From assembly GCA_040399925.1 (NCBI GenBank), contig JBBARF010000002.1, positions 3,213-67,212 on the forward strand: a stretch of DNA of 64,000 bases, in the 5' to 3' direction. Below, in pieces: positions 1 through 17,762 of the stretch (position 1 is its first letter; every line of letters starts with the position of its first letter). The notes below the pieces were generated by a model. It was not told the DNA's origin, did no database searches, and worked only from the letters and a program-made list of their open reading frames with translations. The position numbers were made by a program, and so were the translations under genes. Source of the DNA: Bacteriovoracaceae bacterium (GTDB taxonomy: Bacteria; Bdellovibrionota; Bacteriovoracia; Bacteriovoracales; Bacteriovoracaceae).

Positions 1-2
1 GG

Positions 3-140
3 AAATCTAATATTTCAACAACCGGTCGCTATTCAGCCTCGATTCGAGAAGTCTCTGCTGACGGGATTATGCTTGGTGTTCAAACCTCTGACATGACCAG
101 TGGTACACGTTGCGGTATTCTTATTAACCAGGAAAATTAA
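3..140 (+). CDS. 3' end of an upstream gene (partial), C-terminus ...GVQTSDMTSGTRCGILINQEN*
   Basis: Frame 3 is open from the window edge to TAA at 138-140, which is followed 1 nt later by the ATG of the next gene (operon-like spacing). Confidence 0.6.
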   Translation, partial: KSNISTTGRYSASIREVSADGIMLGVQTSDMTSGTRCGILINQEN

Positions 141-141
141 G

Positions 142-3100
142 ATGAAGCATCACTTCCTGATTTATTTTTTCCTTCTGATTCTAGGTGCATGTAATACACC
201 AGGGACATCGGTTAAGGTGACATCTGGAGGAATCACGACGGATGCTCTTTACGCTCTTGATGGAAACAATGTAGATGGCAAGTTAGTTGACTTAGGTGAA
301 TATCTTTTGACAAGTGATCCGCGCGTGCTCACTATCAGCGTTTATAATAGTACTGCGAAAAGTTATACGGAACTTGATCTTAAAATCACTACCGAAGCCG
401 ATAAAGCTCCCTCGATTACTTTTGCTCCTACTAGTGATGGTGCCATTAATTACCCTGGTCAGGGTGGAACTTGTGGGAAAGAGCTGGGTGCAAATTCTGG
501 TTGCCTCATCAAGCTTTTGCTCACCCCAAGAGAAGGTCGCCGTTACCTCGAGACATTAACACTTAGTTTTAAAAACTTTATTGAAGTCGAAACTCATACT
601 GCCCAAGTTAAGTTTATTGCAGGGACTGCAGCATCGCTAGTTTTTACCAATGATAAAACTCAATACACTTTTGGGGCGCTTGTAGGAAGTGCCCAGACAC
701 CTGTTGTTGAGCGAGCGGAGAAACCAACTTTTAATGAAGAACTAGAGATCGTGAATGCTGGTGGATTACCAGCAAAAGATATTGTCGTCACTCTCGCAGA
801 AGTCTGTCTCTCAGCGATAAGTAATGACTGCCCAACAGGAATGATAGGGGCCTATTCATTTGAAAATAACTGCCCCGCTGTTCTTGAACCAGGCGACAAG
901 TGTAAAGTCATGATTCGTTACACGCCAAAAAACCAGGATATCGCAGGTGATCCTCTTAGATCGGAAATAGCAGAGATTAATTACCGCGCAACTTTAAATT
1001 TAGCCTTTAAAAAAGATCCCATGAACTCAAGCGGAGGCCTTAACGGTTATTTCCGTTCTGTCTCAACAACCATTGAAGCGCGTTTTAAAGTTTCTCAAGC
1101 GACGGTGAGTTTTGAAGCTCCAGTTATTTCAGGTAACCGAGACGTCCGCACCATGAGGATCAGCAACGTTGGTTACCAAGAAGGTGAGATCAAGGCAATT
1201 GCTGTGAGGGATAGTGGGGGAGTTCTCATGGGAACTTGTAGCGCTAGAGCGGGATTTGATTATCTTGTTTGCGTTGATCCTTCAAATACTCCTCTCTCTC
1301 TGGCGAGTTTCCCTTTTACAATAAAAGATAAAGATTCCTGTGTTGCTGTTTCGCCTCTGGTTGGAAAACTTGTTCCGGTTGGGTCAGGTTGCCTTATTGA
1401 TGTCACCTTTCAGCCCTCGGTAACCTATATCCGCGACTATGATACTGATTTTTTAAACTTACAGCCTGAAGTCATTTTTGATTCTCGCTGGCAGGGCACA
1501 ACTAAAATTGTCACGACAAAACTTTTTAATCTTTCGGCAAAAGCTAGAGCTGCGGCCAGAATAAGTGTAACAAGCGTGCTCCTAGATGGAACCAAATATC
1601 CAATCACAGCGGGAGTGAACCCGACTGCAGATTTAGGTCGACTTGCTCTTCAGTCTCCTCTCTATTTTAAAAGGGCCCCATTTGTTGTTACTTTCACCAA
1701 TAATGGTAGCATCTCGGCGACTAACATTTCTCTTCGAGATGGCTTGAATCGTACAATTCCGATTGGTGGCGCCGGAGCGAATCTAGGAGCAATGGCCCCA
1801 TTTTATTTTTCTGGAGCAGTGGCCAGTGATAGCTTCTGTACCGTGATTCCCCCTGCTGGATCATGCACAATCGTTACGAATTTTGCTCCCATCGGAATGG
1901 CCACAGGTGCACAAGAAGATGCAAATATGTTTGATGGCATTGGGCTTGACCTTAGACCCTATAAATCTTTTGAGCTCCTCTATGATAGTGGAGCCGCCTA
2001 TACTGATATTAATCGTGATAACAATATTCCAGATTATCCTCGCAGCTCTGCCAATGTGAGAGTCAATACACTTCTTGCCCGAAAGGGTCTGTTGATGAGA
2101 CTCAGTGATGATACTAGAAACGTTAATTCTTTCGGCGGAACCATTAATGCCGTAGGTGGCACTTTTATATCGAATATCTTTTTAACCAACATTGGAACAG
2201 GAACGATTCCTTATATCCGTTTACAGAATCCTCCGGTACCGACCGCCCCATCATTTCATTTTAATACCAATCTCATTCCGACTACAAACCCTGCTTCTCT
2301 TGGTGCAGACTATGATTGCTTGAGTATCACTGACCAAGATTTTACCTACGCAACACCTGCTGGTGCAGATCCATCAGTAAGAGCTGGAATGTTCGCAGGT
2401 CTCCCTAAAGACAAGTCTTGCGTCTATACCATCGAAATGAAAACTGCTGATAGGTTCCGCTTCGTTAATCCTACTTCGTGTACAAGTCTACTTCCTACCG
2501 ACTCAAATGAAGAAGAGGCAACAAGGCTTTTTAGCCGTTCGCTAGATTCCTCTGGAGGTACAAGTCTTTGGGAGTTTTGTAGTAATAATGCAGTAGCGAT
2601 TCTTTGGTCAAACATTGGCGTGACTTACTATGATGGCGATAATGAAGATCTTCTCGCAAGACCTTTTGGAAGAAGATTTAACTTACCTAATTACACTCAC
2701 TCCGTTAACCAGAGAGATGTTGCAAAACTCAGTCTCCATTCCTTTTTTCCACCTCTAACCTCGACCATGTATCGACCTGGTTTTACCTACCCGGCAATAT
2801 CAGGGACTCAAGTGGCAAGAATTATTCCAGAGATGTGGTTCTATGGACTTGGAAAGAATTTTAACTATCTTGCCAATGATCCCCTGCAAGTTTCTCCCTT
2901 TGTGAGAGGTAATGGCTCGAGGAACTTTGTTCCTACTCTTTCAGGGTTTGCTGATCGGGCCAACTATGACTTTATTCTTTATGTCGGAAGTTTTCCTCAA
3001 GGGTCTCCGGCGTTTGATCTTCCCATTGGCCTGGGAAACTTTGGAGAGCATCCGGCGAAAGTTCTGAGCTACACCAACACTCCAGATCCTAGTTTCACAG

Positions 3101-5391
3101 TACTTACTTCGCCTGAAACTTTCCCCGTCACGGTTCCAAGTAATTCTAATCTTTTGCCACTAACTTACAGATTTAATCCTTCCATCGCTGGAGAGCACCG
3201 GATGGAGATTGATCTGTCCTATGAAAATGGAAGACACTTAGTTCCTCTCATTTATAAATCTAGTAATGTCCCTTCGAATCTCGCAACAGCTACAAAAGAA
3301 GTGATGGACCTAAAAATTTTGGTTCTTGCTCACGTTCAGCAAGCCGGTACCCATCCACTGCTCACGATGAATGTGAGTGACTATGATGTGATTCAAAATG
3401 AATCTGGACCACCAACAGTTACTCTCGGCGATGCTTATCCCTCTTCACTTACATGGAATAGCAGTCCTCCCACCTCAAATCTTATTTTCGATACGATTAA
3501 ATTAACCGCTGCACCAACAGTAAATGATGCTTATGCTAAAAAGAAAATCGTCTTCAGCAATAATACCGCATTTCCACTTTTAGATCTGAGGAATATTTTT
3601 AGAGTCGATGCCTCGGCTTCGGCTTCTAGAACTGTTCCTTCAAGCTTTACATCCTCACTGGCGCAAGTTCCAATGGGTGAGACGCCTTGTACATCAGGAA
3701 TGACCCTAAATCCTTTTTCAAGTTGTACTCTCATTCTTATTTATCAGCCAACGGCTGCTGATTCGACGGAATCGTTTGTGTTGACCTCCATTTATAATAT
3801 GGGATCTATTGGAGGCCAGTACGTCATGCAAAATGTGGGTGTAAACCTACTACCTCGATCACCGGGCTTTGTCGTCGCCTCTGGACGAACGCTGGAGACT
3901 ATCAACTACAATGTTTCCCAAGGAAGTACAACCGTCCCTCGCTCATCATATGCGATGAATTTTGGTACTGTGAGTATGTCGACAATGCCTTTGAAATTTA
4001 ATTTTCAAGAACCAACTGGCCTCTATCAGAGATTAATTTTACGAAATACCCAAGCGACTAAGGCGTCGCTGCTGCTTGCCTATCAGAAAAATGTCACAAG
4101 ATATTCTTTGCGAGGGTATTCTCCAGGATCACCAGCTCCCACCAGTTTGATTCCATCTGCTGGAGAATATCGGAACTACGGAGGCCTTGACTACGCTGTC
4201 ATTTACTCCACCAAGTATGGCAATGGTGATAAAAAAGTCACGATGGAAGCCTCAAAGGGCTGTTTTTTTGGTGATGACGAAACGAATAATGCGATACCTG
4301 CCCATCAAAAGGGATTCAGTTCTACAACTATTACACCTTGCAATGTGCTTACATACTTCAGTGCTAATTTTGACTTCCTTCATAGAACCCTCTCCATTTC
4401 GAACGGCAACGACATGAGGGAGACTGCGGCTGAGCTCTGGTACTTCTCTGTGAACCGAAGTTCTACTTCTTCATTATGGGTCCATATGAAAGGGGTTATT
4501 ACTCCTGATCCATCAATTGCGAGTGGATCAGTAGGATCAGTTGCGGCTTTAGATAACCGAACTGTAAACTTTAGTACGCAAAAAATGACACCTACCAATT
4601 CAGATCTAGGTGATATCGTCGGATTAAGAATCATGTTTTCAAATTCAGCTGTAGGTCTTAATAACCCGTATAGCACAGCCATTACGAGCTATGTTGATAT
4701 TAGGCCTTATGTCGCAACATCCACTCAGTTTGCAAATATTACGACCGGTCTAGCTAATGGTCAGTATTTTTATTTTAGGATTGTTGCAATCCGAAGGGAT
4801 ACTCGATTTGTTGATGGAACACCTAAGCGGTTCCTAGGTATGAATCTTAATGAATATCTTTCAGCGGCAAATAATAATGCAACTCCAGTTAGCATTCTGG
4901 TACCACCAATCAACTTCCATTATTTCCACACCCAGAAGCTCCTTGTAGAAAAGAGTCTCACAGGCGGGATTGCTTACGACCCATTCATGACTTCCTCAAA
5001 CAGGTGCTCGCTACGAACGCAGCTCACACTTAAGAATCCTGGAAATATCAACCGCCCTTTTCAGTTGATTAACTCAGCTGCTTGGTCTCTACTGCTCAGC
5101 ACTCCAAGTGCTAATTCTTATGCAAACATGACCCAGATTCCCCATTGGATGGGAGATGCGGCTACTAACATTGATCTCTTATTTGGGAGTATGCCAGGTT
5201 TCATTCCAGGTACCTCATCCCAAATACTCCCTGGTAGCTCGGCTTTCTATATTAGAGACAGTGCTATTCCCAATGCTAATGTACGTATAGCACGTGGTGG
5301 AGTTCCAGGAACGACCTACGCTAACTATACTTCGCTCATTCATAGTACTATCATATATGGTTCTGCACGTTGCATGGTTTTATTACCTTAG
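142..5391 (+). CDS. Giant surface lipoprotein/adhesin with tandem ASH/choice-of-anchor-D-like Ig domains, an FN3-like domain and a C-terminal Cys-containing tip domain
   Basis: ATG142 (AGGA upstream) gives MKHHFLIYFFLLILGA-C, a lipobox. Repeats of a [LF]xNxG ... CxnCxIxxx[FY]xP motif occur about 7-8 times; TGLANGQYFYFRIVA is FN3-like. The track's GTG100 start overlaps the upstream gene and is unlikely. Confidence 0.75.
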   Translation: MKHHFLIYFFLLILGACNTPGTSVKVTSGGITTDALYALDGNNVDGKLVDLGEYLLTSDPRVLTISVYNSTAKSYTELDLKITTEADKAPSITFAPTSDGAINYPGQGGTCGKELGANSGCLIKLLLTPREGRRYLETLTLSFKNFIEVETHTAQVKFIAGTAASLVFTNDKTQYTFGALVGSAQTPVVERAEKPTFNEELEIVNAGGLPAKDIVVTLAEVCLSAISNDCPTGMIGAYSFENNCPAVLEPGDKCKVMIRYTPKNQDIAGDPLRSEIAEINYRATLNLAFKKDPMNSSGGLNGYFRSVSTTIEARFKVSQATVSFEAPVISGNRDVRTMRISNVGYQEGEIKAIAVRDSGGVLMGTCSARAGFDYLVCVDPSNTPLSLASFPFTIKDKDSCVAVSPLVGKLVPVGSGCLIDVTFQPSVTYIRDYDTDFLNLQPEVIFDSRWQGTTKIVTTKLFNLSAKARAAARISVTSVLLDGTKYPITAGVNPTADLGRLALQSPLYFKRAPFVVTFTNNGSISATNISLRDGLNRTIPIGGAGANLGAMAPFYFSGAVASDSFCTVIPPAGSCTIVTNFAPIGMATGAQEDANMFDGIGLDLRPYKSFELLYDSGAAYTDINRDNNIPDYPRSSANVRVNTLLARKGLLMRLSDDTRNVNSFGGTINAVGGTFISNIFLTNIGTGTIPYIRLQNPPVPTAPSFHFNTNLIPTTNPASLGADYDCLSITDQDFTYATPAGADPSVRAGMFAGLPKDKSCVYTIEMKTADRFRFVNPTSCTSLLPTDSNEEEATRLFSRSLDSSGGTSLWEFCSNNAVAILWSNIGVTYYDGDNEDLLARPFGRRFNLPNYTHSVNQRDVAKLSLHSFFPPLTSTMYRPGFTYPAISGTQVARIIPEMWFYGLGKNFNYLANDPLQVSPFVRGNGSRNFVPTLSGFADRANYDFILYVGSFPQGSPAFDLPIGLGNFGEHPAKVLSYTNTPDPSFTVLTSPETFPVTVPSNSNLLPLTYRFNPSIAGEHRMEIDLSYENGRHLVPLIYKSSNVPSNLATATKEVMDLKILVLAHVQQAGTHPLLTMNVSDYDVIQNESGPPTVTLGDAYPSSLTWNSSPPTSNLIFDTIKLTAAPTVNDAYAKKKIVFSNNTAFPLLDLRNIFRVDASASASRTVPSSFTSSLAQVPMGETPCTSGMTLNPFSSCTLILIYQPTAADSTESFVLTSIYNMGSIGGQYVMQNVGVNLLPRSPGFVVASGRTLETINYNVSQGSTTVPRSSYAMNFGTVSMSTMPLKFNFQEPTGLYQRLILRNTQATKASLLLAYQKNVTRYSLRGYSPGSPAPTSLIPSAGEYRNYGGLDYAVIYSTKYGNGDKKVTMEASKGCFFGDDETNNAIPAHQKGFSSTTITPCNVLTYFSANFDFLHRTLSISNGNDMRETAAELWYFSVNRSSTSSLWVHMKGVITPDPSIASGSVGSVAALDNRTVNFSTQKMTPTNSDLGDIVGLRIMFSNSAVGLNNPYSTAITSYVDIRPYVATSTQFANITTGLANGQYFYFRIVAIRRDTRFVDGTPKRFLGMNLNEYLSAANNNATPVSILVPPINFHYFHTQKLLVEKSLTGGIAYDPFMTSSNRCSLRTQLTLKNPGNINRPFQLINSAAWSLLLSTPSANSYANMTQIPHWMGDAATNIDLLFGSMPGFIPGTSSQILPGSSAFYIRDSAIPNANVRIARGGVPGTTYANYTSLIHSTIIYGSARCMVLLP

Positions 5392-5440
5392 AGGTTTTTT
5401 CCTCATTGTATAGAATCTGACTTCAACATAAGATTTTCTT

Positions 5441-6781
5441 ATGTGTAAGCTAGGTTTCAAATTCTCAATTCTCTTATTTTTATTCCTGAATCTTCAGGCC
5501 CATGCCAATGATTCACGGTTAATTTTAGTTAGGAAAATTCAAGGTCTTGAGCAATTATCCGATGCTCTCGGCAGGCAGATGCAAACTTTAACTTTAAAAG
5601 TTGCTTCGCAACAGCCGGGTCACCAGATACTTCTTTCTGGAAGTGATACTCCTGAGTCAACTACTGTGGACATGGTTGCGATGGAAGCAGAAGTAGGTCG
5701 CTCAGAGAATGGATATAAAATTGAAACTCGTCTTCTTGATCTCAGATCCAAAAAGCTTTTAACTAAAGCGTCCTTAGAAAACATTCGAGAAGAAAACCTC
5801 CTCCGCATGTTCCAAGGGGCCCTAGAGTCTTTATTTATTCTAGATGAAAAAAATCCCTCAAAAGTCCCTAAAGTAAAAACTCCTCAGCCGGTAATCAAGA
5901 AAGAGAATCTAAGATCAAAACCGTCGACGACGCAGGTAAATCAAGCCGATCCCCCAACGCTAAAATTTAGAGAACGAGTTTTGCAAATGAAAGCTGATGC
6001 CGATGAGAGTATTCAAAAGATCGTAAATGATAAGCAGAACGCAGCACCGAGCGCCGAAAAGCTCTCTGCTCCTTCAACTCAATCAAGCTCTATGGCCTCT
6101 CCGAACCAAGTTTCGGTCGCAGAGGATCCGGTCAAAAAAGCAGTCATCGAGAAAACGTATGCAAAAAGTTATGGATTAGCTGGGGGTTATGATTCTAGAG
6201 AAATTAAAAGTCAGTATCTCGTTGGAACAACAACCAAAGCTCAGCTGTTAACCTTAAAGGCATCAGCTTTTTTTCCGATGGCGTTCTCAAGCGGGAAGGT
6301 TGGTGGAGATTTTGATATGGCCTATAGCCGGGCGATCTCATCTCCTGTGGTGTTGCCATCAATTTATCAAATAGGAGCTTTTCTCACTTGGAAAGAAGAG
6401 CGCTGGACTCTTTCAACGGGGCTTCAGCAAGATTCATCTTTTTTTGTTAACCTCCCCTCAGCGGGAGAAGGACTTAAGCCACAAACCATTACGGGAACAT
6501 GGCTAAAATTAAAATCATCGTTTCGGTTTTATGCCAAAGGTTATTGGAAAGTGAATTTGGGTTACGGATCACCATTGTTAGCTCAGACGAACTATTCTCC
6601 TCTCAAAAAGGTAACTAAGTGGTCGGGACTTAACGCTGTTCTTTCTGTCGTTCCACCCTGGTCCTATCGTCAATGGCAAGCAAACTTTACGATTGAAAAA
6701 ATTAATCTCAATACATCGGGAGAAACGTCATTTACCTTAAACGAATCACGAACTGGCTTATTTGCTACTCGGCAGCTTTAA
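5441..6781 (+). CDS. Exported protein: N-terminal TolB-N/CsgG-like alpha/beta domain, Pro/Lys/Ser-rich linker, C-terminal outer-membrane beta-barrel
   Basis: Signal peptide ending AHA; motif YKIETRLLDLRSKKLL typical of CsgG/FlgO/TolB-N folds; low-complexity linker; amphipathic aromatic beta-strands in the last 200 aa. Confidence 0.55.
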   Translation: MCKLGFKFSILLFLFLNLQAHANDSRLILVRKIQGLEQLSDALGRQMQTLTLKVASQQPGHQILLSGSDTPESTTVDMVAMEAEVGRSENGYKIETRLLDLRSKKLLTKASLENIREENLLRMFQGALESLFILDEKNPSKVPKVKTPQPVIKKENLRSKPSTTQVNQADPPTLKFRERVLQMKADADESIQKIVNDKQNAAPSAEKLSAPSTQSSSMASPNQVSVAEDPVKKAVIEKTYAKSYGLAGGYDSREIKSQYLVGTTTKAQLLTLKASAFFPMAFSSGKVGGDFDMAYSRAISSPVVLPSIYQIGAFLTWKEERWTLSTGLQQDSSFFVNLPSAGEGLKPQTITGTWLKLKSSFRFYAKGYWKVNLGYGSPLLAQTNYSPLKKVTKWSGLNAVLSVVPPWSYRQWQANFTIEKINLNTSGETSFTLNESRTGLFATRQL

Positions 6782-6810
6782 TATTTTGTAGTCAGGTCTC
6801 AGCTTACGAG

Positions 6811-7368
6811 ATGATTCAGTCAGGACTCAAAAAGTCTGATGAGTTTTCTCTCATGATGGGAATGGCGAATATAAGTTTCACAGAGTCTCAGAGTGCTTTA
6901 AGTGGGCCTAATCAGCAAACTCCTGCCTCAGGATCTGTAGCAAGCATCAGTGGGATGCTCCACTATCGATTCAGAACGGATGGAAATAAGGCCTGGTATG
7001 GCCAGTTTACCTTTCCTCTCATAGCAAGCCAGGGAACCTACTTTTCGAGTGGTGGTGGGCTGGAGTATTACTTTGGCAATTCAAATGCTGCCAAGGTAAT
7101 CCTCCAAGATGCTACGACATCTCTTAGTATTACTCCAGTAACTCGCTATTTTCTTTTATCTGGACTTAACATGGCCTACATTTCTTACCTAACTGATACG
7201 GCAAAGAAAAACGATACCCTTTTAGAAATTGATTTAGGTGGGGGAGTAAGTCGTCGTTTTGAGAAGTGGACTTTAAGGGCCCAGGCAGAAATTGCCCGGG
7301 GGATTGGGATATCGACCACAACTTTAGCAATGAAGGCCATGGTAGGTGGCATTTATTTCCTCGATTAA
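6811..7368 (+). CDS. Small outer-membrane beta-barrel protein (true start probably upstream, near 6730)
   Basis: Alternating hydrophobic beta-strands, Gly/aromatic rich, ends GGIYFLD. The frame is open back to 6706 and encodes a signal-peptide-like stretch there. Confidence 0.6.
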   Translation: MIQSGLKKSDEFSLMMGMANISFTESQSALSGPNQQTPASGSVASISGMLHYRFRTDGNKAWYGQFTFPLIASQGTYFSSGGGLEYYFGNSNAAKVILQDATTSLSITPVTRYFLLSGLNMAYISYLTDTAKKNDTLLEIDLGGGVSRRFEKWTLRAQAEIARGIGISTTTLAMKAMVGGIYFLD

Positions 7369-7420
7369 GAAACCTTTCAAGGAATATGAGTTTTATTGGA
7401 TAATAGTACTGGAGACTATT

Positions 7421-8026
7421 ATGAAACGGCTTTTATTCATTACTTTTATTCTGTCAATCATCTTGAGCGATGTATCAATGGCAGCTAAATTAAACATTAA
7501 AAGTCAGCCAGATGCCGCTGAGATTTTTATTAGCACAAACGGTAAACCTATACGTCTGGGTGTGACTCCTTACGAAGCGAACCTAACTGAGGTTATGAAC
7601 GTATACGTTAAATCAAATAGCTTCGTACTTGAAATTAGAAAATCTGGTCATACTCCTTACCGAGTACTTTTAGCTAAAACGACGGACTCCGATCTGGAAC
7701 TCACGGCCAACCTTGAATTAGACAAGGCCATATCAAATATCAAAGAGCATGATTCACTGATGAACCAACTTTTTGATGTTCAAAAACTTGTGAGAGGTCG
7801 CAACTTCCGTGATGCACTTTCGAAGTTAGATGATCTTGAGAAAAAACATCCAACTCTCTCTATTATTCCTGAAATGAAGGCCACGGCCTACTACATGAAT
7901 AAAGAAGTTGAGAGTGCTCTTAGTTATTACCGTAAAGCCTTTTCATTAAATTCAGACAATCATGATGCCTATAGGATGAAACTTTATCTCGAGAAAAAAC
8001 TCGGGGTAGATTCAGACGTTCAATGA
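7421..8026 (+). CDS. Periplasmic PEGA-domain + TPR protein
   Basis: GGAG at 7411 then ATG7421; signal peptide MKRLLFITFILSIILSDVSMA; PEGA motif KSQPDAAEIFI...GVTP; TPR helices AYYMNKEVESALSYYRKAFSLN. Confidence 0.75.
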   Translation: MKRLLFITFILSIILSDVSMAAKLNIKSQPDAAEIFISTNGKPIRLGVTPYEANLTEVMNVYVKSNSFVLEIRKSGHTPYRVLLAKTTDSDLELTANLELDKAISNIKEHDSLMNQLFDVQKLVRGRNFRDALSKLDDLEKKHPTLSIIPEMKATAYYMNKEVESALSYYRKAFSLNSDNHDAYRMKLYLEKKLGVDSDVQ

Positions 8027-9942
8027 TGAAATTTTCCATTGCATTTCTAGTTTGTTTAATCAGCGGTAATGTCTTTTCTTTAGCCGGAAATTCTTTGACT
8101 TGGCAAAAACTTGCTTTGGAAGAAAAAGTCCAGTCTAAGTATAATTCAACTATTTCAGCGCTCCTAAAAGATAACCAGTATATGGTTGATGTTGAAGTTG
8201 AAGTCTCTGAACCAGCTGCTCCTAATTTCGGAAATAATGGACATAAAGGTGGACCACGCGTTTCAGATCTTTCAATGGCCGAAGCTAGAGGCGATTACAT
8301 CGCATTCTCTAAAATGGGGCTTGAAGTTCCAGTGGTCGAAAAATTTCTTGATGAAGACCGCACAAAGCTGATGAACCTTTATCGTTTTAACGAAACCTAT
8401 GATGTCTTTAAGAGCATTAACTCACTTAATATTACTGTTTATCTTAGTGATAAGATTACTTCAGACCTCGCAGAGATTGTTAAAAAAGTTGTTGGAAATA
8501 CCAGAATCTCTGTCTCTGGAATTAAGCCAAAAATTAAATTCGAAAGTATCACGATGGAATGGGTCGATCCTGCTCTGAAAAAAATCGCTGATGATAAAAA
8601 ACTAGAGAAAAAACCTGAAGAGCAAGAACCAAAAATTTGGGCAAAGGATTGGTACGAATGGGCTTCTCGCTGGGGAAATGCAGTTGGTCTCATTCTTGGA
8701 GCTCTCATTATCAGCCTCATCGCTCTGTCACTTTTTAAGCAATGGAAAGCTTTTATGGAGAAATTTGCAGCTCAGGCCAATCAACCAAAGCCTGAGGAGA
8801 AGAAAGAAGAAGATGAGAAAGAAGAGGAACTTGCTACTGCACAAGCAACGAATATACCTAAAGAGGAAGAAGAGATGGCAGCTTCACACGATTTCGAAAG
8901 ATTCCAGCAGTGTCTTGAACAGCATTCAGATGAAGCTGTTAACATGGTGAGAAATTGGTTGAACGAGGACGAGGAAGCGTCTCTCTTGGCGCTACGTGGA
9001 GTAGCTCAACAGGTGAATGCTGCAGATATGGAAAAACTAATGGCGGGTTTGTCATCTGAGCAACGTGATAAGTGGAAAAATCTGATCCATCATCTTGAAC
9101 CCAAAGACTTAGTTACTGCTAACAAGCACATCTTTCAAGAAGTGATTCGTTATTTCTTAGTTCCAACAAAGATCAAAGATGGTGAGCTCCTAAATCTCAT
9201 CATGGAACTTAACTCCAAAGCAACCTTTGAATTCATCAATGCTAATAAAATCCATACTGGTGCGATGATGAACTTATTAAATCCAGTCATCGTTGGAAAG
9301 ATTCTAGCTGAAGTTGATGACGACACTGCTGACAACTGGCTAGCGTTAGGCGCTCAGTTTGACATTAAGAGAATGGATGAAGTGCTTCCGACTCTCAAAG
9401 AGGCCCTCCGTGCCCACAAAGAGGCCAATGGTCCGGCTCCGTTTGCTCAACGAATCATGACAATGATCCCGACATCATCTCCGAAAAGAGAAGGAGTTCT
9501 TTTTAGAGCTCTGGCCAAAGCTGGCAATGCTGGAATGGTGACAGAAGTCGCCAAACGCCACTTTCCGAGTGAGCTTATCTTAGAACTTCCGGTTCCTTTT
9601 CTAAAAGAAGTTCTACAGTCTTATCCGATTTCAAAAAGGGTAGAGTTTTTACAAAGTCGTCCGGAAGATGTCCGAGCAAATTTGATTGATATACTTGCTG
9701 AAACTGGTACACCGGCACGGGACATGCTCGACATGGAACTTGAAAATATTTCCCATGACGCTTCTAAGCTCCAATCCATATCTGATCGTAGTGAAGATAT
9801 TTGGTACGACTTTGTTAAGCTTTCGAGAATGAGTCTAAGTAAAAATTCTTCTTATGCCACGATCTTAAATCAGCTCATTCAAGAATGGAGCTCTCAGCTT
9901 CAAGGTAAGCTTCAGTCGATTAAGGGTGGAAAAGCCGCATAG
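8023..9942 (+). CDS. Putative natural FliF-FliG fusion: signal peptide, FliF RBM3/SpoIIIAG-like ring motif, TM helix, FliF C-tail, FliG N/M/C domains
   Basis: Segments match the FliF/FliG consensus patterns in the correct order: LEEKVQSKY..LL...VDVEVEV; INSLNITVYL..IVKKVVG; TM AVGLILGALIISLIALSLF; HSDEAVNMVRNWLNE; FPSELILELPVPFLKEVLQSY; ARDMLDMELENI. Confidence 0.75.
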   Translation: MMKFSIAFLVCLISGNVFSLAGNSLTWQKLALEEKVQSKYNSTISALLKDNQYMVDVEVEVSEPAAPNFGNNGHKGGPRVSDLSMAEARGDYIAFSKMGLEVPVVEKFLDEDRTKLMNLYRFNETYDVFKSINSLNITVYLSDKITSDLAEIVKKVVGNTRISVSGIKPKIKFESITMEWVDPALKKIADDKKLEKKPEEQEPKIWAKDWYEWASRWGNAVGLILGALIISLIALSLFKQWKAFMEKFAAQANQPKPEEKKEEDEKEEELATAQATNIPKEEEEMAASHDFERFQQCLEQHSDEAVNMVRNWLNEDEEASLLALRGVAQQVNAADMEKLMAGLSSEQRDKWKNLIHHLEPKDLVTANKHIFQEVIRYFLVPTKIKDGELLNLIMELNSKATFEFINANKIHTGAMMNLLNPVIVGKILAEVDDDTADNWLALGAQFDIKRMDEVLPTLKEALRAHKEANGPAPFAQRIMTMIPTSSPKREGVLFRALAKAGNAGMVTEVAKRHFPSELILELPVPFLKEVLQSYPISKRVEFLQSRPEDVRANLIDILAETGTPARDMLDMELENISHDASKLQSISDRSEDIWYDFVKLSRMSLSKNSSYATILNQLIQEWSSQLQGKLQSIKGGKAA

Positions 9943-9967
9943 GTGGCAATCTCTACCATCTTTTTTT
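9942..9967 (+). terminator. Weak Rho-independent terminator candidate
   Basis: GGTGG-caatct-CTACC stem (one G-U pair) followed by ATC and T7, directly after the stop codon. Confidence 0.4.
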
Positions 9968-10025
9968 ACCTCATAGGCTATTCTAGAATGGTAATTGCTA
10001 CAGCTCACCAATGACAGGAGGTCTT

Positions 10026-10526
10026 GTGAGAGGTCCAGATTCAAATGCTATTGAAAATACTCAAAAAACACCTGACAAAGAAAAAAGTGCTCAAACGGTT
10101 TATGACTGGAAAGTCGTTCTTGATAAAGGTCTAGGTGATGATAAGAATGTCATCTACCAAGAAAAAGCATGGGCCCAATTATGTTCTAAGATGCGTGAGG
10201 CGTGCCCTGAAACAAATTGGTATGCGATCTCGGAGCGGGTCGAAAAATGCACACCTGACAGAGCAGTGACGATTGATGCGATAGGAAAATGGCTTAATAA
10301 TCTCCTTGCCTCATCTGAATGGCCTTTTCCCGAAAAAATTATTCTGGTTTCTGTTCAAAGACCAACACCGAGTTGGAAAATTATCTTTGAAGGTAATTAC
10401 AAAAAGCTCCCTTTTACGAATCCTCCCTTAAGTTTATCAGTCATCCCTTTTCGGGATAAATTCTCTTCTGGCTGGACTATCCACGAAATAGATTCATATA
10501 ACATTAGCAAAGTTGGCGAAGCATGA
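10026..10526 (+). CDS. Hypothetical cytoplasmic protein
   Basis: AGGAGG at 10016-10021 favours GTG10026 over ATG10011; 4-bp overlap with the next gene; no family recognised. Confidence 0.65.
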   Translation: MRGPDSNAIENTQKTPDKEKSAQTVYDWKVVLDKGLGDDKNVIYQEKAWAQLCSKMREACPETNWYAISERVEKCTPDRAVTIDAIGKWLNNLLASSEWPFPEKIILVSVQRPTPSWKIIFEGNYKKLPFTNPPLSLSVIPFRDKFSSGWTIHEIDSYNISKVGEA

Positions 10527-11743
10527 AATCTTGTTTTATTTTGATTTTGTGTCTATTTTTTATACCTTTATCCCATGGCTCGAATCCATCTTTGACTAAC
10601 CTGCTTAAAACCATCGATGGAAAAATTAAGCATGATGAAAAGATTAAAAAAACAGCAGCCAATGAAACTAAATCAGTTTCAATCCCCTGGGGAATTGTAG
10701 ATCGGCGCGAGAGAAATCTTTGGACCTCTATAGTTTACGCTTACGATCACTTGAAAAATTTTTCTGCCACTGAAAGATATAATTTTATGTATGAGGCGAT
10801 GCGTGCCACTTCTTTTGGTCACCCAAAAAGAGTCTATGCTCTTAAAGCATGGATTAAAAAAGAAGATGCTCGTATGGTAAGCAGAGGCATGCCAGCGAAT
10901 TTCTATCTAAATTGGACTAAGCATGTTTTCTCCATTAATAAAGCCATTGATGAAGTCGGTGCTCCTCGTCCAACTGTTAATATACAAAAAACAGAATTAG
11001 GAATGGGCCCTGAAACGATAAGCTTCATTAAAAACCTTCGCGCTCAAATTGATCAGATCAAACCTGAAGCCTCTAAAGAAAAGTTTTCAATAGGTGAAAA
11101 AGTCGCTGAAAAGAAATCAAGCGCTTCTTTACCGATAAATGTTTTAATGTCGACGGTACTTCTTTCAATCTTGGGTTTTTACTTTGGAAGAAAAAGCAAG
11201 CCTGCGAAAGTGATCATTAAAACGATCAAGGTTCCGGTTCCTAAAGAAAAGACTGAGGTGACACCTGTTATTGAGGCCCAAGCGGCGCAGGTAAGTTTAG
11301 AGCAAGAATTTCACAAGTTATTAACTGAAAACTATCATCTGTTAGAAGTTGCGCAGATTAATGTCAACTTGGGGAATCGCAGTCCTTTCAATAGTGATGT
11401 GAATGCACCTCGAGAGTCTGTGTATGAGGCCCTTAAATGGCTTTTAAAAGGGACTATCGCTATCGCTAATACAAGTGGTTCAAGAGTGTCTCATATGGAA
11501 TGGAACTGTAAAGAAAGCCAAGGCAGAGTAACATTTCAATTCACTCTTCACGGAATTGAGTGTGATAATGATTCCCTCTATATGAATGCCCTGATAGATG
11601 GTGAAAACTCAGCTCCGGCCCACTTTGGAAGAAGTGAGCAGGCATTATCTGGGCATCTACCTTTGATTCAGTTCACATCAGGCAACCGTAAGACGAGTGT
11701 TTCTTTAGGACTGGATTCAATTAGATCTTCAATGAATCAATAA
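10523..11743 (+). CDS. Membrane protein: signal peptide, periplasmic domain, one TM helix, degenerate HATPase_c (GHKL)-like cytoplasmic domain
   Basis: N-terminal signal; TM INVLMSTVLLSILGFYFG; C-terminal helix-strand order (YEALKWLLKGTI...VTFQFTLHGIE...TSVSLGL) mimics HATPase_c, but N-box, G-boxes and H-box are missing. Confidence 0.55.
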   Translation: MKSCFILILCLFFIPLSHGSNPSLTNLLKTIDGKIKHDEKIKKTAANETKSVSIPWGIVDRRERNLWTSIVYAYDHLKNFSATERYNFMYEAMRATSFGHPKRVYALKAWIKKEDARMVSRGMPANFYLNWTKHVFSINKAIDEVGAPRPTVNIQKTELGMGPETISFIKNLRAQIDQIKPEASKEKFSIGEKVAEKKSSASLPINVLMSTVLLSILGFYFGRKSKPAKVIIKTIKVPVPKEKTEVTPVIEAQAAQVSLEQEFHKLLTENYHLLEVAQINVNLGNRSPFNSDVNAPRESVYEALKWLLKGTIAIANTSGSRVSHMEWNCKESQGRVTFQFTLHGIECDNDSLYMNALIDGENSAPAHFGRSEQALSGHLPLIQFTSGNRKTSVSLGLDSIRSSMNQ

Positions 11744-11750
11744 TATAAAA

Positions 11751-11783
11751 AAAGCCCCTAGGAATGATTCCGAGAGGTTTTAT
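11751..11783. terminator. Bidirectional terminator candidate between convergent genes
   Basis: A-tract, imperfect stem GCCCCTAGGAA-tga-TTCCGAGAGGT, then T-rich tract. Confidence 0.5.
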
Positions 11784-12182
11784 TTATTGATCTTGTTTGA
11801 AAATATAGGCATCAGCTGAATTGTCTGCTCCTTCACCATCTTGGAACAAAGCACCCGCTCTTATCTTACCGTTGTGTTTGGCGATAGGTTCTAAGACTCT
11901 AATCACGGCACGTCGGTTAAGCTTCGCAATTTCTCTAGGTGACACTCCATTTTTTGCTTCCATCTTATATTCGGCCACTGGTTCTCGATCTCCCTTGGCC
12001 AAAGCAACGAGGTATTCAGTCTTAAATCCGAAGTATTCAAACCTTGCAATGACTTGAGCCGCTCTGGCAGCACTCAAGGACCAGTGGTTCATATTACCAG
12101 CAATTAAGGATTCATTCTTATCTGCGTGGCCTTCAATGAGAATTCGATACTCAGTGTGATGGGCCTTAATCATCTCAATCAG
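11784..12182 (-). pseudogene. motB: 5'-truncated MotB (OmpA-like peptidoglycan-binding domain only)
   Basis: ILIEGHAD...NHWSLSAARAAQV...LVALAKGDREPV...NRRAVI is the MotB/OmpA C-terminal signature. There is no TM or plug region, and the frame is closed by TGA at 12216-12218 inside the neighbouring GT gene. Confidence 0.8.
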
Positions 12183-13054
12183 CCCATGGCCTCGAGAACT
12201 ACTCGACCGAATTCTTCAATGCGGGCCGGGAGGACGAAGAGGTCGATAGCATTATAGAAATTTTGAATGTCATCAAGGGATGGCTGAAACTTTACCACGG
12301 AGTCGAGATTTTTAGTTGTGATGAGATCACGGAAAGGTCCGGGCTCATCTTTACCGATAATTCGCACATCAATTTTTTGAAGGGTTTCGGGTTTGAGTTT
12401 GGCCAGAGCTTCAACAAAAATATCAAGCCCACGTTTTTTAAAATTTCCCGACGTGATGAGACTCACCACGATTTTATCGGTGAAACCAAAACGCTTGCGC
12501 TGAAATTGTTTTTCCTGTTTTGAGAGGGGAAAAAACATTTTGGTATCAAGGGCCGGATAGATGACCTGAATTTTTTCTGCCGGTACTCCAAAACGTTTGA
12601 TGGTGTCGTTTTTCATTAGCTTGGAATTTGCGATCATGTAACGGAAGCTTTGATTCTTGAGCAGTGGTCCGTGAGTCAGGGCCATCTCGTGATCAGCCGG
12701 TAGAGCTTTGTTATTGATGAGTTCAGAGGCGTAGAACACACAGTTATGGAGAGTCACCACGTCCTGATCTTGGATGTCTCCGTGACCGACGGTGATAGTG
12801 GGACTCAGTTTTTGGCGAAGGTTTTGCACTTGCCAGTTATACCAACGGCGGCGAGTGATGCCGGTGCTTTTGAGCCATGGGAGCATTTTATGAGGGATGA
12901 CTGAGATCGATTTTAAGGCATCTTTGTCCATGGTCATAGCGGCGACATGAACGACGTAACCCTTAGATTGAAAATAACGAATATTTTCAAACGCGGTTCG
13001 GGCGGAACCGGAGTTCTTGTGGAGTTGGAGCATGCAGATGAGGGCGGTTTTCAT
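12179..13054 (-). pseudogene. GT4 (WaaG/RfaG-like) glycosyltransferase, 3'-truncated
   Basis: GT-B motifs KRGLDIF and FVLPARIEEFGRVVLEAMG. The ORF stops immediately after the E-x7-E motif, where intact GT4 enzymes continue (G.PV...) for tens of residues. Confidence 0.8.
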
Positions 13055-13095
13055 ACTGTTAATATGTCACCGTTCTGAAGCAAATTCAAAGATAA

Positions 13096-13407
13096 TTAGG
13101 CGGCGTTTTTAATCGCTGCGGTAATTTTGAGTAGTGTTTCAATGTTGTAGTTTGATCCTGCAGCAACACGGCGAATTGTAGCAATGGGAAGTTTTGAAAT
13201 TCTCGAGAGTTCGTCTTTGTTGATGATGCTTAGGTAACCCATAATTATTTCTTGAAATGCTTCTCTGTCGCCTTCCATGAGGGCCTGTGACAATGCCAAA
13301 GTTACCTTCTCTTCACTTCGGGAAAAATCTTTAGGAGTTATCTTAAACAACTTCACGTTTTTCTTTAATTTGAGAGGCTTCATCATTTTGATATTAAACT
13401 TTGTCAT
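13096..13407 (-). CDS. HTH antitoxin-like protein (HI1420/addiction-module antidote type), no adjacent toxin
   Basis: ALSQALMEGDREAF...ELSRISKL..ATIRRVAAGSNYNIETLLKI resembles the antidote-family HTH. Confidence 0.65.
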   Translation of the reverse strand: MTKFNIKMMKPLKLKKNVKLFKITPKDFSRSEEKVTLALSQALMEGDREAFQEIIMGYLSIINKDELSRISKLPIATIRRVAAGSNYNIETLLKITAAIKNAA

Positions 13408-13440
13408 TATGATTCCTCGGATACGTATTTGATTATTAGT

Positions 13441-13487
13441 TTTCTAATGATCTTGAATATTTCATATGAAGACTTTGAATGCTTATC
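13441..13487. repeat. 47-bp imperfect direct repeat, copy 1
   Basis: 42/47 identical to 15820-15866 by manual alignment; contains the ATG and upstream region of a truncated paralog (MKYSRSLEN*). Confidence 0.85.
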
Positions 13488-13511
13488 AATTTTACTTTAA
13501 ATAAAATTCTT

Positions 13512-13556
13512 AAAAAAAACTATGTCCAAAAGGTACATGGCACCTTTTGGACATAG
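13512..13556 (-). terminator. 15-bp perfect hairpin followed by U8 on the minus strand
   Basis: CTATGTCCAAAAGGT-acatggc-ACCTTTTGGACATAG (13520-13556), with A8 at 13512-13519. Confidence 0.65.
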
Positions 13557-13674
13557 AGACCTTACGACCTAGGATGTTTTCCAAGTATGAAAAGAAACGA
13601 CAGAGTCTTAAGTGAGAGGATTTCTTTTTGATAGATGTGAGATATTGCAATTAAGCCATTGATATTAATGATTA

Positions 13675-13716
13675 TTGATAATAATACAAAGATGGTATAT
13701 ACTATATGTGTATATA
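13675..13716 (+). promoter_or_regulatory. Sigma70-type promoter with overlapping palindromic operator
   Basis: TTGATA(13675)-17 nt-TATACT(13698); inverted repeat TATATAC-N7-GTATATA (13696-13716) overlaps the -10 box. Confidence 0.6.
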
Positions 13717-13733
13717 TCAGATTGGGACAAGGT

Positions 13734-14069
13734 ATGAATCCAAATCTGCCAATACACCGTCAACGCTTGACCACTGATCGACGAGGTTGAATTTGTAAAA
13801 TTGAAGTTAGTATTGAGCAGACTGCTGACTCGAATATCTATCAACCAGATGGTCAAAAATGTGTTTTTAAAGTTTTGAGAGAAAAGTTAAAAGGCGAAGA
13901 AGAATTTGAAATTGTTCTCTTAATTGATAGTCACAGTCCTTTTGGATTTCATAATCACTCAAAGCTACCGCTGAATCATGAAGTTCGAGAAACCATCCAT
14001 GCATCAAATTGGATCGAAGCGTGGCATATATTCGATAAGAAAGTTAGGGAGCTATTGGATGAAGCTTAA
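13734..14069 (+). pseudogene. DUF6516/TumE-like toxin candidate interrupted by an in-frame TGA at 13788-13790
   Basis: ATG13734 is in frame with the track ORF 13875-14069; a single TGA separates MNPNLPIHRQRLTTDRRG from ICKIEVSI...IDSHSPFGFHNH. It sits upstream of an HVO_A0114-type gene, the usual pairing. Confidence 0.6.
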
Positions 14070-15101: not shown

Positions 15102-15124
15102 CTTTTTAAACGAGCTCTATCATT

Positions 15125-15524: not shown

Positions 15525-15622
15525 AAAATAGTAGGACAAGCTACTATTTTTAGTAGGTCAACCTATCAAAAAAGAATAGCTCTGGTTTAATTGATTAAAT
15601 ACAGGTGTTTGGGGTGTCTTTT

Positions 15623-15844: not shown

Positions 15845-15866
15845 ATGACGCCTTTGAATGCTTATC
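15820..15866. repeat. 47-bp imperfect direct repeat, copy 2
   Basis: 42/47 identical to 13441-13487. Confidence 0.85.
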
Positions 15867-15918
15867 GGTCTCTTTAGGGCTTTTGTTTAATTTTAACCTG
15901 CTAATCATTATAGTTCGT

Positions 15919-16411: not shown

Positions 16412-16434
16412 TCTCTACCTCAATTAGACCATGA

Positions 16435-16463: not shown

Positions 16464-16540
16464 CACTCGGATTTGTAAAGATATTATAGATTAATGAAGG
16501 CGCGTTTTATAAGCTCAAAGAGAATTTTAGTGGAAGATTT

Positions 16541-17761: not shown

Positions 17762-17762
17762 A

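Follow-up and report, generated by a model that had tools for sequence, protein, structure and literature searches.

Can a flagellar-type rotor and its stator occur without the type III export apparatus? This question, which would give a new handle on the evolution of the flagellar motor, is raised by a stretch of 64,000 nucleotides from a Bacteriovoracaceae bacterium (assembly GCA_040399925.1, contig JBBARF010000002.1, positions 3,213-67,212 of the forward strand), referred to below as the window. The original prediction, which was made from the DNA sequence, proposed that a co-oriented block at one end of the window encodes a non-flagellar rotary or secretion machine spanning the cell envelope. 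The best explanation of the data presented here is that the window contains the larger part of a gene cluster, conserved in Bacteriovoracales, for a machine that spans the envelope and has a flagellar-type rotor and stator but no flagellum. Literature searches turned up no account of a cluster of this kind.

Results

Layout of the gene cluster

The co-oriented block, placed by the original prediction at 142-12182, is real and strongly conserved. It consists of seven genes on the forward strand, named G1 to G7 in the order in which they occur, at 142-11743. The cluster extends past the block as it was first noted, since the 3' end of another giant gene, fn3A, occupies bases 1-140 upstream of G1, and since in the real genome the block is followed by motBA and then by genes encoding a 451-aa membrane protein (H451) and a 645-aa fn3 lipoprotein (H645). 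H451 was considered as a FliG-like protein, but this assignment was dropped, and the protein is instead an LRR-like membrane protein. The remainder of the window, from 12.2 to 64 kb, is a polysaccharide-biosynthesis locus, and no flagellar structural gene is found within the 64 kb, as had been claimed.

The block is also covered by a contig from a relative (L004; 98.4% identical), to which the window aligns from base 1955 of that contig onward. Scanning L004 for promoters and terminators was uninformative because the number of sites was no higher than in shuffled sequence.

The motB gene and a false join

The 3' part of motB, encoding an OmpA-like peptidoglycan-binding domain, is located at 11784-12182 on the reverse strand. 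It had been described as a motB remnant (11784-12173) converging on the block, a description that turned out to reflect an artefact. The match between the window and the 98.4%-identical contig breaks off after base 12182, and in three independent runs contigs from either side continue into different sequence exactly at this base, with no contig spanning 12182/12183. Because no run supports the junction, a real deletion of motB was ruled out, and the junction at 12182-12183 is a false join that arose by contig concatenation or mis-assembly. The continuation from the left side supplies the remainder of motB (30/30 bases), whereas the continuation from the right side extends a GT4 glycosyltransferase gene (12179-13054; '..EAMGTGLPVITTDK') that is likewise cut by the junction. 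In the true locus, as seen in contigs from relatives, an intact motB (252 aa) is followed by an intact motA (265 aa).

In Pfam, the linked stator proteins match MotA_ExbB (PF01618) and, for MotB, the MotB_plug and OmpA families. The best NCBIfam match of the linked MotA is MotP/PomA with 124 bits, which is under the equivalog cut-offs of 341-394. In the PDB, it matches flagellar MotA (3e-32) and PomA (1e-26) best and no ExbB or TolQ structure at E <= 1e-3. The channel aspartate of MotB is located in the motif WLxSYADLM. MotA retains the RK pair at the position of PomA R88/K89, and the acidic residues of its torque loop are shifted and partly conserved in an alignment that is ambiguous in this region. 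Together, these sequence matches support a stator of the flagellar (PomA/MotA) type, with a MotB that carries the plug, the channel aspartate, and an OmpA-like domain. No other proteins of the cluster are as conserved as MotA and MotB (65-82% identity).

G5, a candidate rotor protein

G5 (8023-9942, forward strand) encodes a 639-aa inner-membrane protein in which the original prediction saw a rotor resembling FliF and FliG. Searches with the single sequence (Pfam, NCBIfam, and phmmer against the PDB) gave nothing relevant, with FliG models below threshold, and the likeness to FliF and FliG was revealed only by family profiles and fold search. When the G5 profile A6 was compared with the PDB, matches were obtained to FliG-MC (E = 4.1e-6), to a Vibrio FliF-FliG fusion chain (8z4d; E = 2.1e-4), to Salmonella FliG (E = 1e-3), and to TM2 and the C-tail of Salmonella FliF (E = 3.7e-3); the narrower profile A1 gave E = 7.9e-4. 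The regions of the fusion chain matched by A6 comprise the start of RBM3, the FliF tail, and FliG. Foldseek, run with an AF2 model of G5 (pLDDT 77), returned full-length FliG as the top match, with a probability of 1.0 over ~327 columns.

From its N terminus, G5 comprises a periplasmic RBM3-like domain (aa 24-176, 8092-8550), for which the AF2 secondary structure and pLDDT indicate the order a-b-[insert]-a-b-a-b; a transmembrane helix (aa 219-238, 8677-8736) that aligns to FliF TM2; the motif FERFxxxLxxxxxEAxxxVRNWL (8893-8961), which aligns to the C-terminal, FliG-binding tail of FliF; and a FliG-like N/M/C region (8965-9906) found by both profile and Foldseek. The alignment of the FERF motif comes from the matches to domain 2 of the Vibrio fusion chain and to residues 466-559 of Salmonella FliF. 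The similarity of the periplasmic part to the RBM3/S-ring region of FliF is weak, with E = 0.12-1 for the start of RBM3 in the profile comparison and E-values of about 0.5-1 in Foldseek, at probabilities of 0.5-0.93. The insert within this domain (aa 62-106, containing GDYIAFSKxGLExP) is highly conserved, with invariant residues at 64-103, and is modeled by AF2 with low confidence; it may have a collar-like role.

Two features of the flagellar proteins are missing from G5. RBM1 and RBM2, which house the export gate in FliF, are absent because the periplasmic part is only ~190 residues long and has a single RBM-like unit. The EHPQR motif of FliG_M, which binds FliM, is not kept; G5 has NKIH at aa 408-411 and the family consensus is 'kkee', compared with EHPQ in T. 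maritima. Few parts of the protein are as well conserved and as well modeled as its C-terminal FliG-like domain (pLDDT > 90). In FliG, a charged ridge on the torque helix (R281, D288, D289, and R297 in E. coli) faces R90/E98 of MotA. The helix of G5 aligned to it is PARDMLDMELEN (aa 564-575), in which R566 and E572 are near-invariant. The charge pattern is partly conserved, in a register that is ambiguous because of a 3-residue gap in the alignment.

Profiles and structure models taken together support the view that G5 is a true, very divergent homolog of a FliF-FliG fusion, with one RBM3-like domain, TM2, the C-tail, and FliG-like N/M/C domains, as the original prediction had suggested. The family encompasses 447 representative clusters (50% identity) at E <= 1e-3 and is annotated as hypothetical throughout.

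Envelope proteins encoded alongside G5

The stop codon of G4 (7421-8026, forward strand) overlaps the start of G5 by 4 nt. In 55/55 loci G5 comes directly after G4, no more than 80 nt away, and the two genes are translationally coupled. G4 has a signal peptide, and PEGA and TPR matches were found in 12/19 (best E = 1.3e-5) and 18/19 of its orthologs, consistent with the periplasmic PEGA-TPR protein that had been proposed.

G2 (5441-6781, forward strand) encodes an exported protein with a C-terminal outer-membrane beta-barrel. The AF2 model (pLDDT 78) shows an alpha/beta N-domain (aa 26-130) with the order b-a-b-b-b-b-a, then a linker that is disordered except for one helix, and finally a 10-strand barrel (aa 243-445). 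The top Foldseek matches were OpcA (E = 3e-7), OmpT, and Pla, with E-values ranging from 3e-7 to 2e-5. The barrel had been predicted to come with a CsgG/FlgO-like domain, and this second part of the claim was not supported, as 0/23 G2 orthologs match any CsgG/FlgO Pfam family at E <= 1 and the G2 profile had no match in the PDB.

G3 (6730-7368, forward strand) encodes a 212-aa exported protein that is probably a small outer-membrane barrel. Translation from the listed start (6811-7368) yields a protein without a signal peptide, whereas translation from an ATT codon at 6730 adds one. This codon has an AGGAG Shine-Dalgarno sequence in front of it, and the first 52 nt of the frame that it opens are shared with the end of G2. 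The ATT start is conserved: in 12 sequences (11 related loci and the window), AGGAG or GGGAG stands 6-7 nt ahead of the ATT, and translation from the ATT begins with a signal peptide. More distant G3 orthologs have ordinary start codons and signal peptides.

Three giant lipoproteins belong to the cluster. G1 (142-5391, forward strand) is a 1749-aa protein with Ig-like repeats, recognized through a weak HYDIN/ASH-type match; its lipobox cysteine is conserved in 11 orthologs, its C terminus carries the conserved sequence ...SARCMVxLP, and the gene is syntenic in 27 loci, all in agreement with the giant Ig-repeat lipoprotein of the original prediction. The second, fn3A (1-140, forward strand), is represented in the window by its tail, whose translation ends in ...SGTRCGILINQEN and a stop; the corresponding gene in L004 reaches L004 base 2094, which equals window base 140. 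In relatives, fn3A is about 1780-1850 aa long, and a full-length ortholog matches fn3 with E = 5e-19. fn3A and the third protein, H645, share the sequence CVGTV[EQ][ED] directly after the lipid-modified cysteine, and a C-terminal 'RC' motif is common to all three giants. Either motif could serve as a recognition signal. The giants may be located at the cell surface or on the periplasmic face of the outer membrane.

The last two genes of the block are both on the forward strand. G6 (10011-10526), which is found in the closer clade only, encodes a cytoplasmic protein of about 170 aa with conserved CPETxW and WPFP motifs and without a PDB (profile) or Pfam match. G7 (10523-11743) encodes a bitopic membrane protein composed of a signal/anchor, a helical periplasmic domain, a transmembrane helix, and a conserved cytoplasmic domain of about 150 aa, and its profile had no match in the PDB. 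By eye, the C-terminal domain of G7 had been read as histidine-kinase-like, an assignment that was unsupported and was dropped.

Conservation and genomic linkage

The original prediction hinged on whether the neighborhood, including an intact motA-motB pair, is conserved, and it is kept in about 50 distinct Bacteriovoracales loci. These loci come from MAGs and from metagenome contigs, the metagenomes having been scanned with alignment A3, and the neighborhood persists where G5 identity drops to about 22% and where the gene order has been shuffled. G5 is usually linked to G2 (the 10-strand barrel), G3, and a stator pair of the PomA/MotA type, as well as to two to three giant lipoproteins with Ig/fn3 domains. 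Gene orientation varies (convergent, divergent, or same-strand), yet the set remains together. Among 17 fully flanked loci, MotAB is encoded <=10 kb away in 10 and not in seven; in at least one further locus the pair lies just past the giant genes, and in some lineages (e.g., L029 and L031) it is absent from the 10-kb neighborhood. In one locus (L059), the genes for rotor and stator occur together in a same-strand operon, G4-G5-G5c-MotA-MotB.

In the loci for which Pfam annotation had been precomputed, the +-10 kb flanks contain no fli, flg, or flh gene, and thereby none for the T3SS export gate or ATPase, rod, hook, FliM/N, or flagellin. Cultured Bacteriovorax have a separate canonical fliF/fliG cluster, and the cultured strains Bacteriovorax HI3 and H. 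marinus SJ have been reported to carry one motAB pair each.

Discussion

A proposed stator-driven ring outside the flagellum

With a probability of about 50%, we propose that the cluster encodes a ring that is driven by stators, acts on giant lipoproteins, and is not part of a flagellum. Because the cluster contains no genes for flagellar export, the rod, the hook, or the filament, it may represent an undescribed ion-driven rotary machine. In the proposed mechanism, G5 would oligomerize in the inner membrane into an assembly resembling the MS-ring and FliG ring, and peptidoglycan-anchored MotAB units would use ion flow to turn this ring via its FliG_C-like domain. The motion would be relayed through the periplasm by the RBM3-like collar and G4 to the outer-membrane barrels and the giant lipoproteins, which would thereby be moved, rotated, or displayed, leading to surface motility or prey contact. 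We infer ring formation by G5, its rotation, and all protein contacts. Such a ring would have no switch complex because the FliM-binding EHPQR motif is missing.

At somewhat under even odds, the cluster stands for a previously unrecognized class of envelope machine that is widespread in uncultured Bacteriovoracales, namely a FliF/FliG-MotAB module without type III export or an axial filament and coupled to lipoproteins. In this class, the PEGA-TPR adaptor and the outer-membrane barrels would provide the coupling to the giant lipoproteins. To our knowledge, FliG-MotA torque interfaces occur in flagella only, and the non-flagellar stator relatives that we know of (ExbBD, TolQR, AglRQS, GldLM, and ZorAB) all act on other partners. 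If the proposal is true, the cluster would be the first non-flagellar use of this interface, and it could either derive from the flagellar motor or reveal how rotor and stator existed independently of the export apparatus. A cluster that keeps the rotor-stator pair while all else is replaced would show that the motor module is reusable. It would also point to an organelle, as yet unstudied, of obligate bacterial predators; how these predators attach and behave on surfaces is poorly understood.

Alternative explanations

Among the alternatives, the one that survives best, although we regard it as unlikely, is that the cluster encodes an accessory structure of the flagellar motor, i.e., periplasmic and outer-membrane scaffolds round the sheathed, fast flagellum of a predator, comparable to the Vibrio H/T rings or the Campylobacter disks. 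The linked MotAB would then be the flagellar stator, and G5 would form a paralogous ring with a role in recruiting, storing, or positioning them. The linked pair may indeed be the flagellar stator itself, because cultured Bacteriovoracales (HI3 and SJ) reportedly have a single motAB pair; moreover, the linked MotA resembles genuine flagellar MotA/PomA as much as these resemble each other, and a periplasmic TPR protein, outer-membrane lipoproteins, and an OmpA-like anchor are part types of known scaffolds. However, no known scaffold has a second FliF-FliG-like ring, no match to the FlgO, FlgP, FlgT, MotX/Y, or PflA/B families was found, and in no locus is a flagellar gene linked. G5 also retains the FliF tail motif and all of the FliG-like N/M/C region, features needed by a rotor rather than by a scaffold.

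A lower probability is given to the idea that MotAB and G5 use ion-motive force to power, across the periplasm, the export or assembly of the giant lipoproteins, in the manner of PorLM/GldLM in type IX secretion or ExbBD-TonB in outer-membrane transport. In this scenario, fn3A, G1, and H645 would be inserted, flipped, or released through the G2 and G3 barrels instead of being continuously moved. While there are two candidate barrels, and two to three giant lipoproteins with shared motifs that might act as recognition signals are usually encoded next to the motor genes, folded Ig arrays could not pass through a barrel of only 10 strands. Furthermore, no homolog of known secretion-system components was detected with Pfam/NCBIfam, and the known systems that energize the outer membrane from the inner membrane all use GIT-type (ExbB/TolQ/GldL) stators, which do not engage FliG.

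It seems improbable that the complex does not rotate at all and is a static envelope anchor or signaling complex, in which G5 would be a degenerate relic serving as a ring scaffold and the linkage to MotAB would reflect only shared regulation. The near-invariance of R566 and E572 in a C-terminal domain that is well conserved and modeled with pLDDT > 90, the 65-82% identity that makes MotA and MotB the best conserved genes of the cluster, and the single operon for rotor and stator genes in L059 all argue against a static complex, even though the EHPQR motif is lost, the charge patterns of the torque helix and the MotA loop are only partly conserved, and L029 and L031 have no MotAB in the 10-kb neighborhood. 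Finally, functional FliF-FliG fusions, natural and engineered, do exist (one such chain being 8z4d), but it is very improbable that G5 is the organism's own MS-ring/C-ring protein in a very divergent flagellum, given the ~190-aa periplasmic part with one RBM-like domain and neither RBM1 nor RBM2, the missing EHPQR motif, the lack of linked export, rod, hook, and switch genes, the ordinary fliF and fliG of cultured relatives, and the failure of Pfam/NCBIfam flagellar models to recognize G5.

Comparison with known systems

The scaffolds of high-torque motors (FlgO/FlgP/FlgT and MotX/MotY in Vibrio; FlgP and PflA/PflB in Campylobacter) are built from similar types of parts, with periplasmic TPR proteins, outer-membrane lipoproteins, and an association with stators in common with the cluster. 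No family matches were found in the cluster, FlgO having been tested in 23 G2 orthologs, and these scaffolds, unlike the cluster, are encoded with flagellar genes and have no second FliF/FliG-like ring.

The original prediction also drew an analogy with the T9SS/Gld and Agl-Glt gliding systems, which is one of function and not of homology. The gliding/T9SS machinery of the Bacteroidota (GldLM/PorLM, GldKN, SprA, and SprB) follows the same logic as that proposed here, with an ion-driven inner-membrane motor acting on large repetitive proteins, and both also have periplasm-spanning parts and outer-membrane components. The phylum is a different one, the stator of the cluster is of the FliG-engaging (FIT) type and not of the GldL type, and searches of the cluster proteins with Pfam and NCBIfam revealed neither a homolog of GldL, GldM, GldK, GldN, or SprA nor a C-terminal domain of the T9SS kind. 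The Agl-Glt system of Myxococcus and Bdellovibrio, which are related predatory lineages, brings together a stator-like motor, TPR proteins in the periplasm, outer-membrane barrels, and an adhesin that is an outer-membrane lipoprotein. AglRQS are TolQR-like (GIT, CCD3) stators without a FliG-like rotor, whereas the stator of the cluster matches flagellar MotA/PomA only; neither equivalents of the TonB-like GltG/J nor similarity to Glt proteins was found in the cluster with Pfam and NCBIfam.

With the flagellar basal body, the cluster shares actual homology, in that G5 corresponds to the N, M, and C domains of FliG and probably to RBM3, TM2, and the C-tail of FliF, and the stator is of the MotA/PomA type. 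It differs from the basal body in that the rotor proteins are fused, RBM1/RBM2 are absent, EHPQR is not conserved, and there are no linked genes for FliM/N, FlhA/B, FliPQR, FliHIJ, rod, hook, L/P ring, or flagellin. In their place, the partners of the rotor and stator in the cluster are a PEGA-TPR protein, outer-membrane barrels, and giant lipoproteins.

A false join interrupts the gene block

The block at 142–11743 consists of seven tightly packed genes in one orientation, separated, in order from G1 to G7, by +49, −52, +52, −4, +68, and −4 nt. They encode a 1749-aa lipoprotein (G1, 142–5391), an outer-membrane (OM) barrel protein (G2, 5441–6781), a small exported protein (G3, 6730–7368, start corrected), a PEGA-TPR protein (G4, 7421–8026), a FliF–FliG-like protein (G5, 8023–9942), a cytoplasmic protein without a recognized fold (G6, 10011–10526), and a bitopic membrane protein (G7, 10523–11743). 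The terminal part of a further giant gene lies at 1–140, and the OmpA-like C-terminal half of MotB, without the rest, lies at 11784–12173 on the strand opposite to G1–G7.

Logan contig L004 (SRR14578333) is 98.4% identical to window 1–12182, and the match ends at 12182. When contigs from three independent metagenome runs were placed on 10500–14000, left-hand contigs passed 12182 into unlike sequence and right-hand contigs entered from unlike sequence in all three runs; no contig from these runs bridged 12182/12183. The left continuation corresponds to L004 14158–14187 (30/30 bases), i.e., the remainder of motB, and the right continuation restores a glycosyltransferase (“...EAMGTGLPVITTDK”). 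Position 12182/12183 is a false join of two unrelated contigs, produced by concatenation or misassembly, which breaks off motB to its left and, to its right, a GT4 glycosyltransferase gene (12179–13054), and creates the stop codon of the latter reading frame. Since the contigs diverge at 12182 and their continuations restore both genes, the join accounts for the apparent remnant of motB, for the truncation of the GT4 gene, and for the stop codon of that gene, all of them artifacts. The original prediction had a motB remnant converging on the block; in the real genome, G7 is followed by intact motB (252 aa; MotB_plug and OmpA) and motA (265 aa; MotA_ExbB), and then by genes for a 451-aa membrane protein (H451) and a 645-aa fn3 lipoprotein (H645), and G1 is preceded by a gene for an fn3 lipoprotein of ~1780 aa (fn3A). 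H451 is missing from the window because of the join.

The join also leaves the physical linkage of 12183–64000 to the gene block unproven. The region from 12.2 to 64 kb, in which no flagellar genes were found, is an unrelated polysaccharide/O-antigen locus plus a few toxin–antitoxin-like genes. Separating the GT4 gene from the sugar genes, a small mobile or toxin–antitoxin-type island (13096–18212) encodes an HVO_A0114-like HTH protein (13978–14499), PRiA4_ORF3 (14496–15101), a BrnT-like toxin (16130–16411), a methyltransferase (16541–17248), and a DUF4258 protein (17420–17761). The large polysaccharide/O-antigen locus (18426–63943) encodes three DegT-type aminotransferases, three AsnB-like amidotransferases, many NAD epimerases, FdtA/WxcM, WbqC, a formyltransferase, several methyltransferases, GT2 enzymes, a flippase, and an ABC transporter ATPase. 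A 797-aa ORF (49376–51769) has no Pfam match.

The cluster is conserved in Bacteriovoracales

A scan of GTDB species yielded 20 loci, all from Bacteriovoracaceae, Halobacteriovoraceae, or Bacteriovoracales MAGs/SAGs; a G4 scan of JGI metagenomes added 33 loci and look-ups another 11. With HMMs built from orthologs, G5 was located no more than 80 nt after G4 in all 55 of the 55 cases. The order fn3A-G1-G2-G3-G4-G5-G6-G7-<motB-<motA-H451-H645 is kept down to about 45% G5 identity, and more distant loci retain this set but arrange it differently: motBA is divergent and situated upstream in L050 and L054, and past the giant genes in L027+L021, L059 reads G4-G5-G5c-motA-motB on one strand, and L032 combines a 781-aa G5 (about 24% identity) with convergent motBA. 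G5c, a separately encoded version of the cytoplasmic (FliF-tail plus FliG-like) region of G5, 368–398 aa long, sits beside motA in some lineages (L027 7225–8331 and L028 8646–9842, minus strand; L059 12211–13344, plus strand). Of the 17 loci having 8 kb or more on both sides, 10 have MotAB within 10 kb of G5, and in at least one of the other seven (“negatives”) MotAB is about 12 kb away. The expectation that this neighborhood, including intact motA–motB, would be conserved in relatives was borne out, order or set being retained across Bacteriovoracales loci. Where loci carry precomputed Pfam annotation, their flanks contain no flagellar families.

The most distant G4–G5 pair examined, L029 (ENA 2.08-Mb scaffold, 9368–22214), has a 737-aa G5 with 22% identity, and in place of the usual partners there is a 4661-aa invasin-like giant along with HEAT-repeat proteins; motAB was not found within 10 kb. 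At another locus (CAVVFE010000011.1), G1 and G5 are each broken into several ORFs, which are either pseudogenes or indel errors of long-read assembly.

G5 is related to FliF and FliG

Single-sequence searches with G5 returned nothing relevant. Its full-length relatives (89 after 90% clustering, about 620–655 aa) are unnamed proteins from Bacteriovoracaceae-type MAGs, and an exhaustive profile search gave 447 representative clusters at E ≤ 1e-3, 259 of these at E ≤ 1e-30; the matches listed are mostly about 600–800 aa, with some of 220–500 aa. A profile of 35 relatives matched Thermotoga maritima FliG-MC (E = 7.9e-4). Matches to the PDB were stronger with a profile of 50, which hit the M and C domains of FliG-MC (E = 4.1e-6), separate stretches (RBM3 start, FliF C-terminal tail, and FliG) of a Vibrio FliF–FliG fusion chain (8z4d, E = 2.1e-4), Salmonella FliG (E = 1e-3), and residues 466–559 of Salmonella FliF, comprising TM2 and the FliG-binding tail (E = 3.7e-3).

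The AlphaFold2 model (pLDDT 76.7) starts with a hydrophobic helix, a periplasmic a-b-[insert]-a-b-a-b domain (aa 24–176), and one TM helix (219–238). A disordered acidic linker then leads into ~340 aa of cytoplasmic, entirely helical structure, which exceeds pLDDT 90 in its C-terminal part. Foldseek against the PDB ranked full-length FliG first (8umx_B, 3hjl, and 8wo5; about 327 aligned columns, probability 1.0), with weaker FliF S-ring/RBM3 entries (probability 0.5–0.93, E = 0.5–1). There is one RBM-like unit, without RBM1 or RBM2. The insert (aa 62–106) is the most conserved stretch of G5 (invariant P64, P67, V80, G90, D91, A94–K97, G99–E101, and P103) yet is modeled at pLDDT below 50, as would be expected of a segment that folds only in the oligomer, like the FliF β-collar. 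The FliM-binding EHPQR motif is not retained. R566 and E572 are near-invariant in the helix that aligns, in an ambiguous register, with the FliG torque helix.

Envelope partners

G4 has a signal peptide, with PEGA in 12 of 19 orthologs (best E = 1.3e-5), TPRs in 18 of 19 (consensus TPR E = 6e-7), and 44–80% identity across the set. G2 comprises an N-terminal α/β domain, a linker, and a 10-strand barrel that most closely resembles OpcA and OmpT/Pla; the CsgG/FlgO-like domain once ascribed to it was found neither with a G2 profile against the PDB nor in a Pfam scan of orthologs. G3 starts at an ATT located 6–7 nt past AGGAG, within the 3′ end of G2, and the signal peptide is encoded next; the ATG at 6811 would yield a protein without it. 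The window and 11 related loci (among L003–L015), 12 sequences in all, share this ATT, a hint that translation may be kept low on purpose or be sensitive to IF3; distant orthologs begin at ordinary start codons and likewise carry signal peptides.

A lipobox Cys is present in G1, fn3A, and H645, and directly past it the two fn3 lipoprotein families (fn3A and H645) share CVGTV[EQ][ED]. The three giant lipoproteins have a conserved C-terminal “RC” motif (..GTRCGILINQEN, ..SARCMVLLP, and ..LKRCSVNY..; genes at L003 15867-, L004 16777-, window 142-, and window 1–140). Both motifs may be sorting or recognition signals. G6 and G7 are confined to the closer clade and have no detectable relatives of known structure. 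The H451 family (L004 15425–16780 and orthologs; 451–550 aa), which has no family match, combines an acidic N-terminus, a long leucine-rich-repeat-like region, a hydrophobic segment, and a conserved C-domain.

A candidate stator-driven machine

The conserved cluster thus combines a homolog of FliF–FliG fusions with a stator of the flagellar type, a PEGA-TPR protein in the periplasm, one or more OM barrels, and giant lipoproteins; it includes no flagellar export or axial genes. The original prediction of a nonflagellar machine, shorn of the motB remnant and the CsgG/FlgO domain, is partly supported and is the favored reading. G5 would assemble into a ring turned by MotAB, and the motion would be relayed across the periplasm to the OM proteins and lipoproteins.

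The best NCBIfam models for the linked MotA are MotP/PomA (124 bits, under the equivalog cut-offs), and its best solved structures are flagellar MotA (3e-32) and PomA (1e-26); no ExbB/TolQ structure matched it at E ≤ 1e-3. MotA retains the RK pair at PomA R88/K89, with acidic residues displaced, and MotB has preserved its plug, its OmpA-like domain, and the channel Asp (in WLxSYADLM). By the scheme of PMC12505986, the stator is more like the flagellar (“FIT”) class than like a generic stator. Two cultured relatives, Bacteriovorax sp. HI3 and H. marinus SJ, reportedly have canonical fliF/fliG and only one motAB pair, so the linked pair could in fact be the flagellum's own stator, whether or not it is shared. 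This single pair speaks for the cluster being a flagellar accessory, which we nevertheless consider unlikely. That the cluster energizes export is a doubtful proposition, and a static relic seems improbable.

Comparison with known systems

No published description of such a cluster was found in the literature searched; source names for its proteins are “hypothetical” or, once, “DUF305 family,” and most have none. The flagellar rotor–stator is the nearest system in terms of homology. Compared with the flagellum as a system, the cluster departs in RBM1/2, EHPQR, and gene association, and an ordinary MS/C-ring is a scarcely credible identity for G5. T9SS/gliding and Agl–Glt offer analogy only, their defining proteins being absent from the cluster. 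We regard the putative motor as a variant of the ion-driven FliG–MotA motor, and there is a substantial chance that the whole machine is of a new kind.
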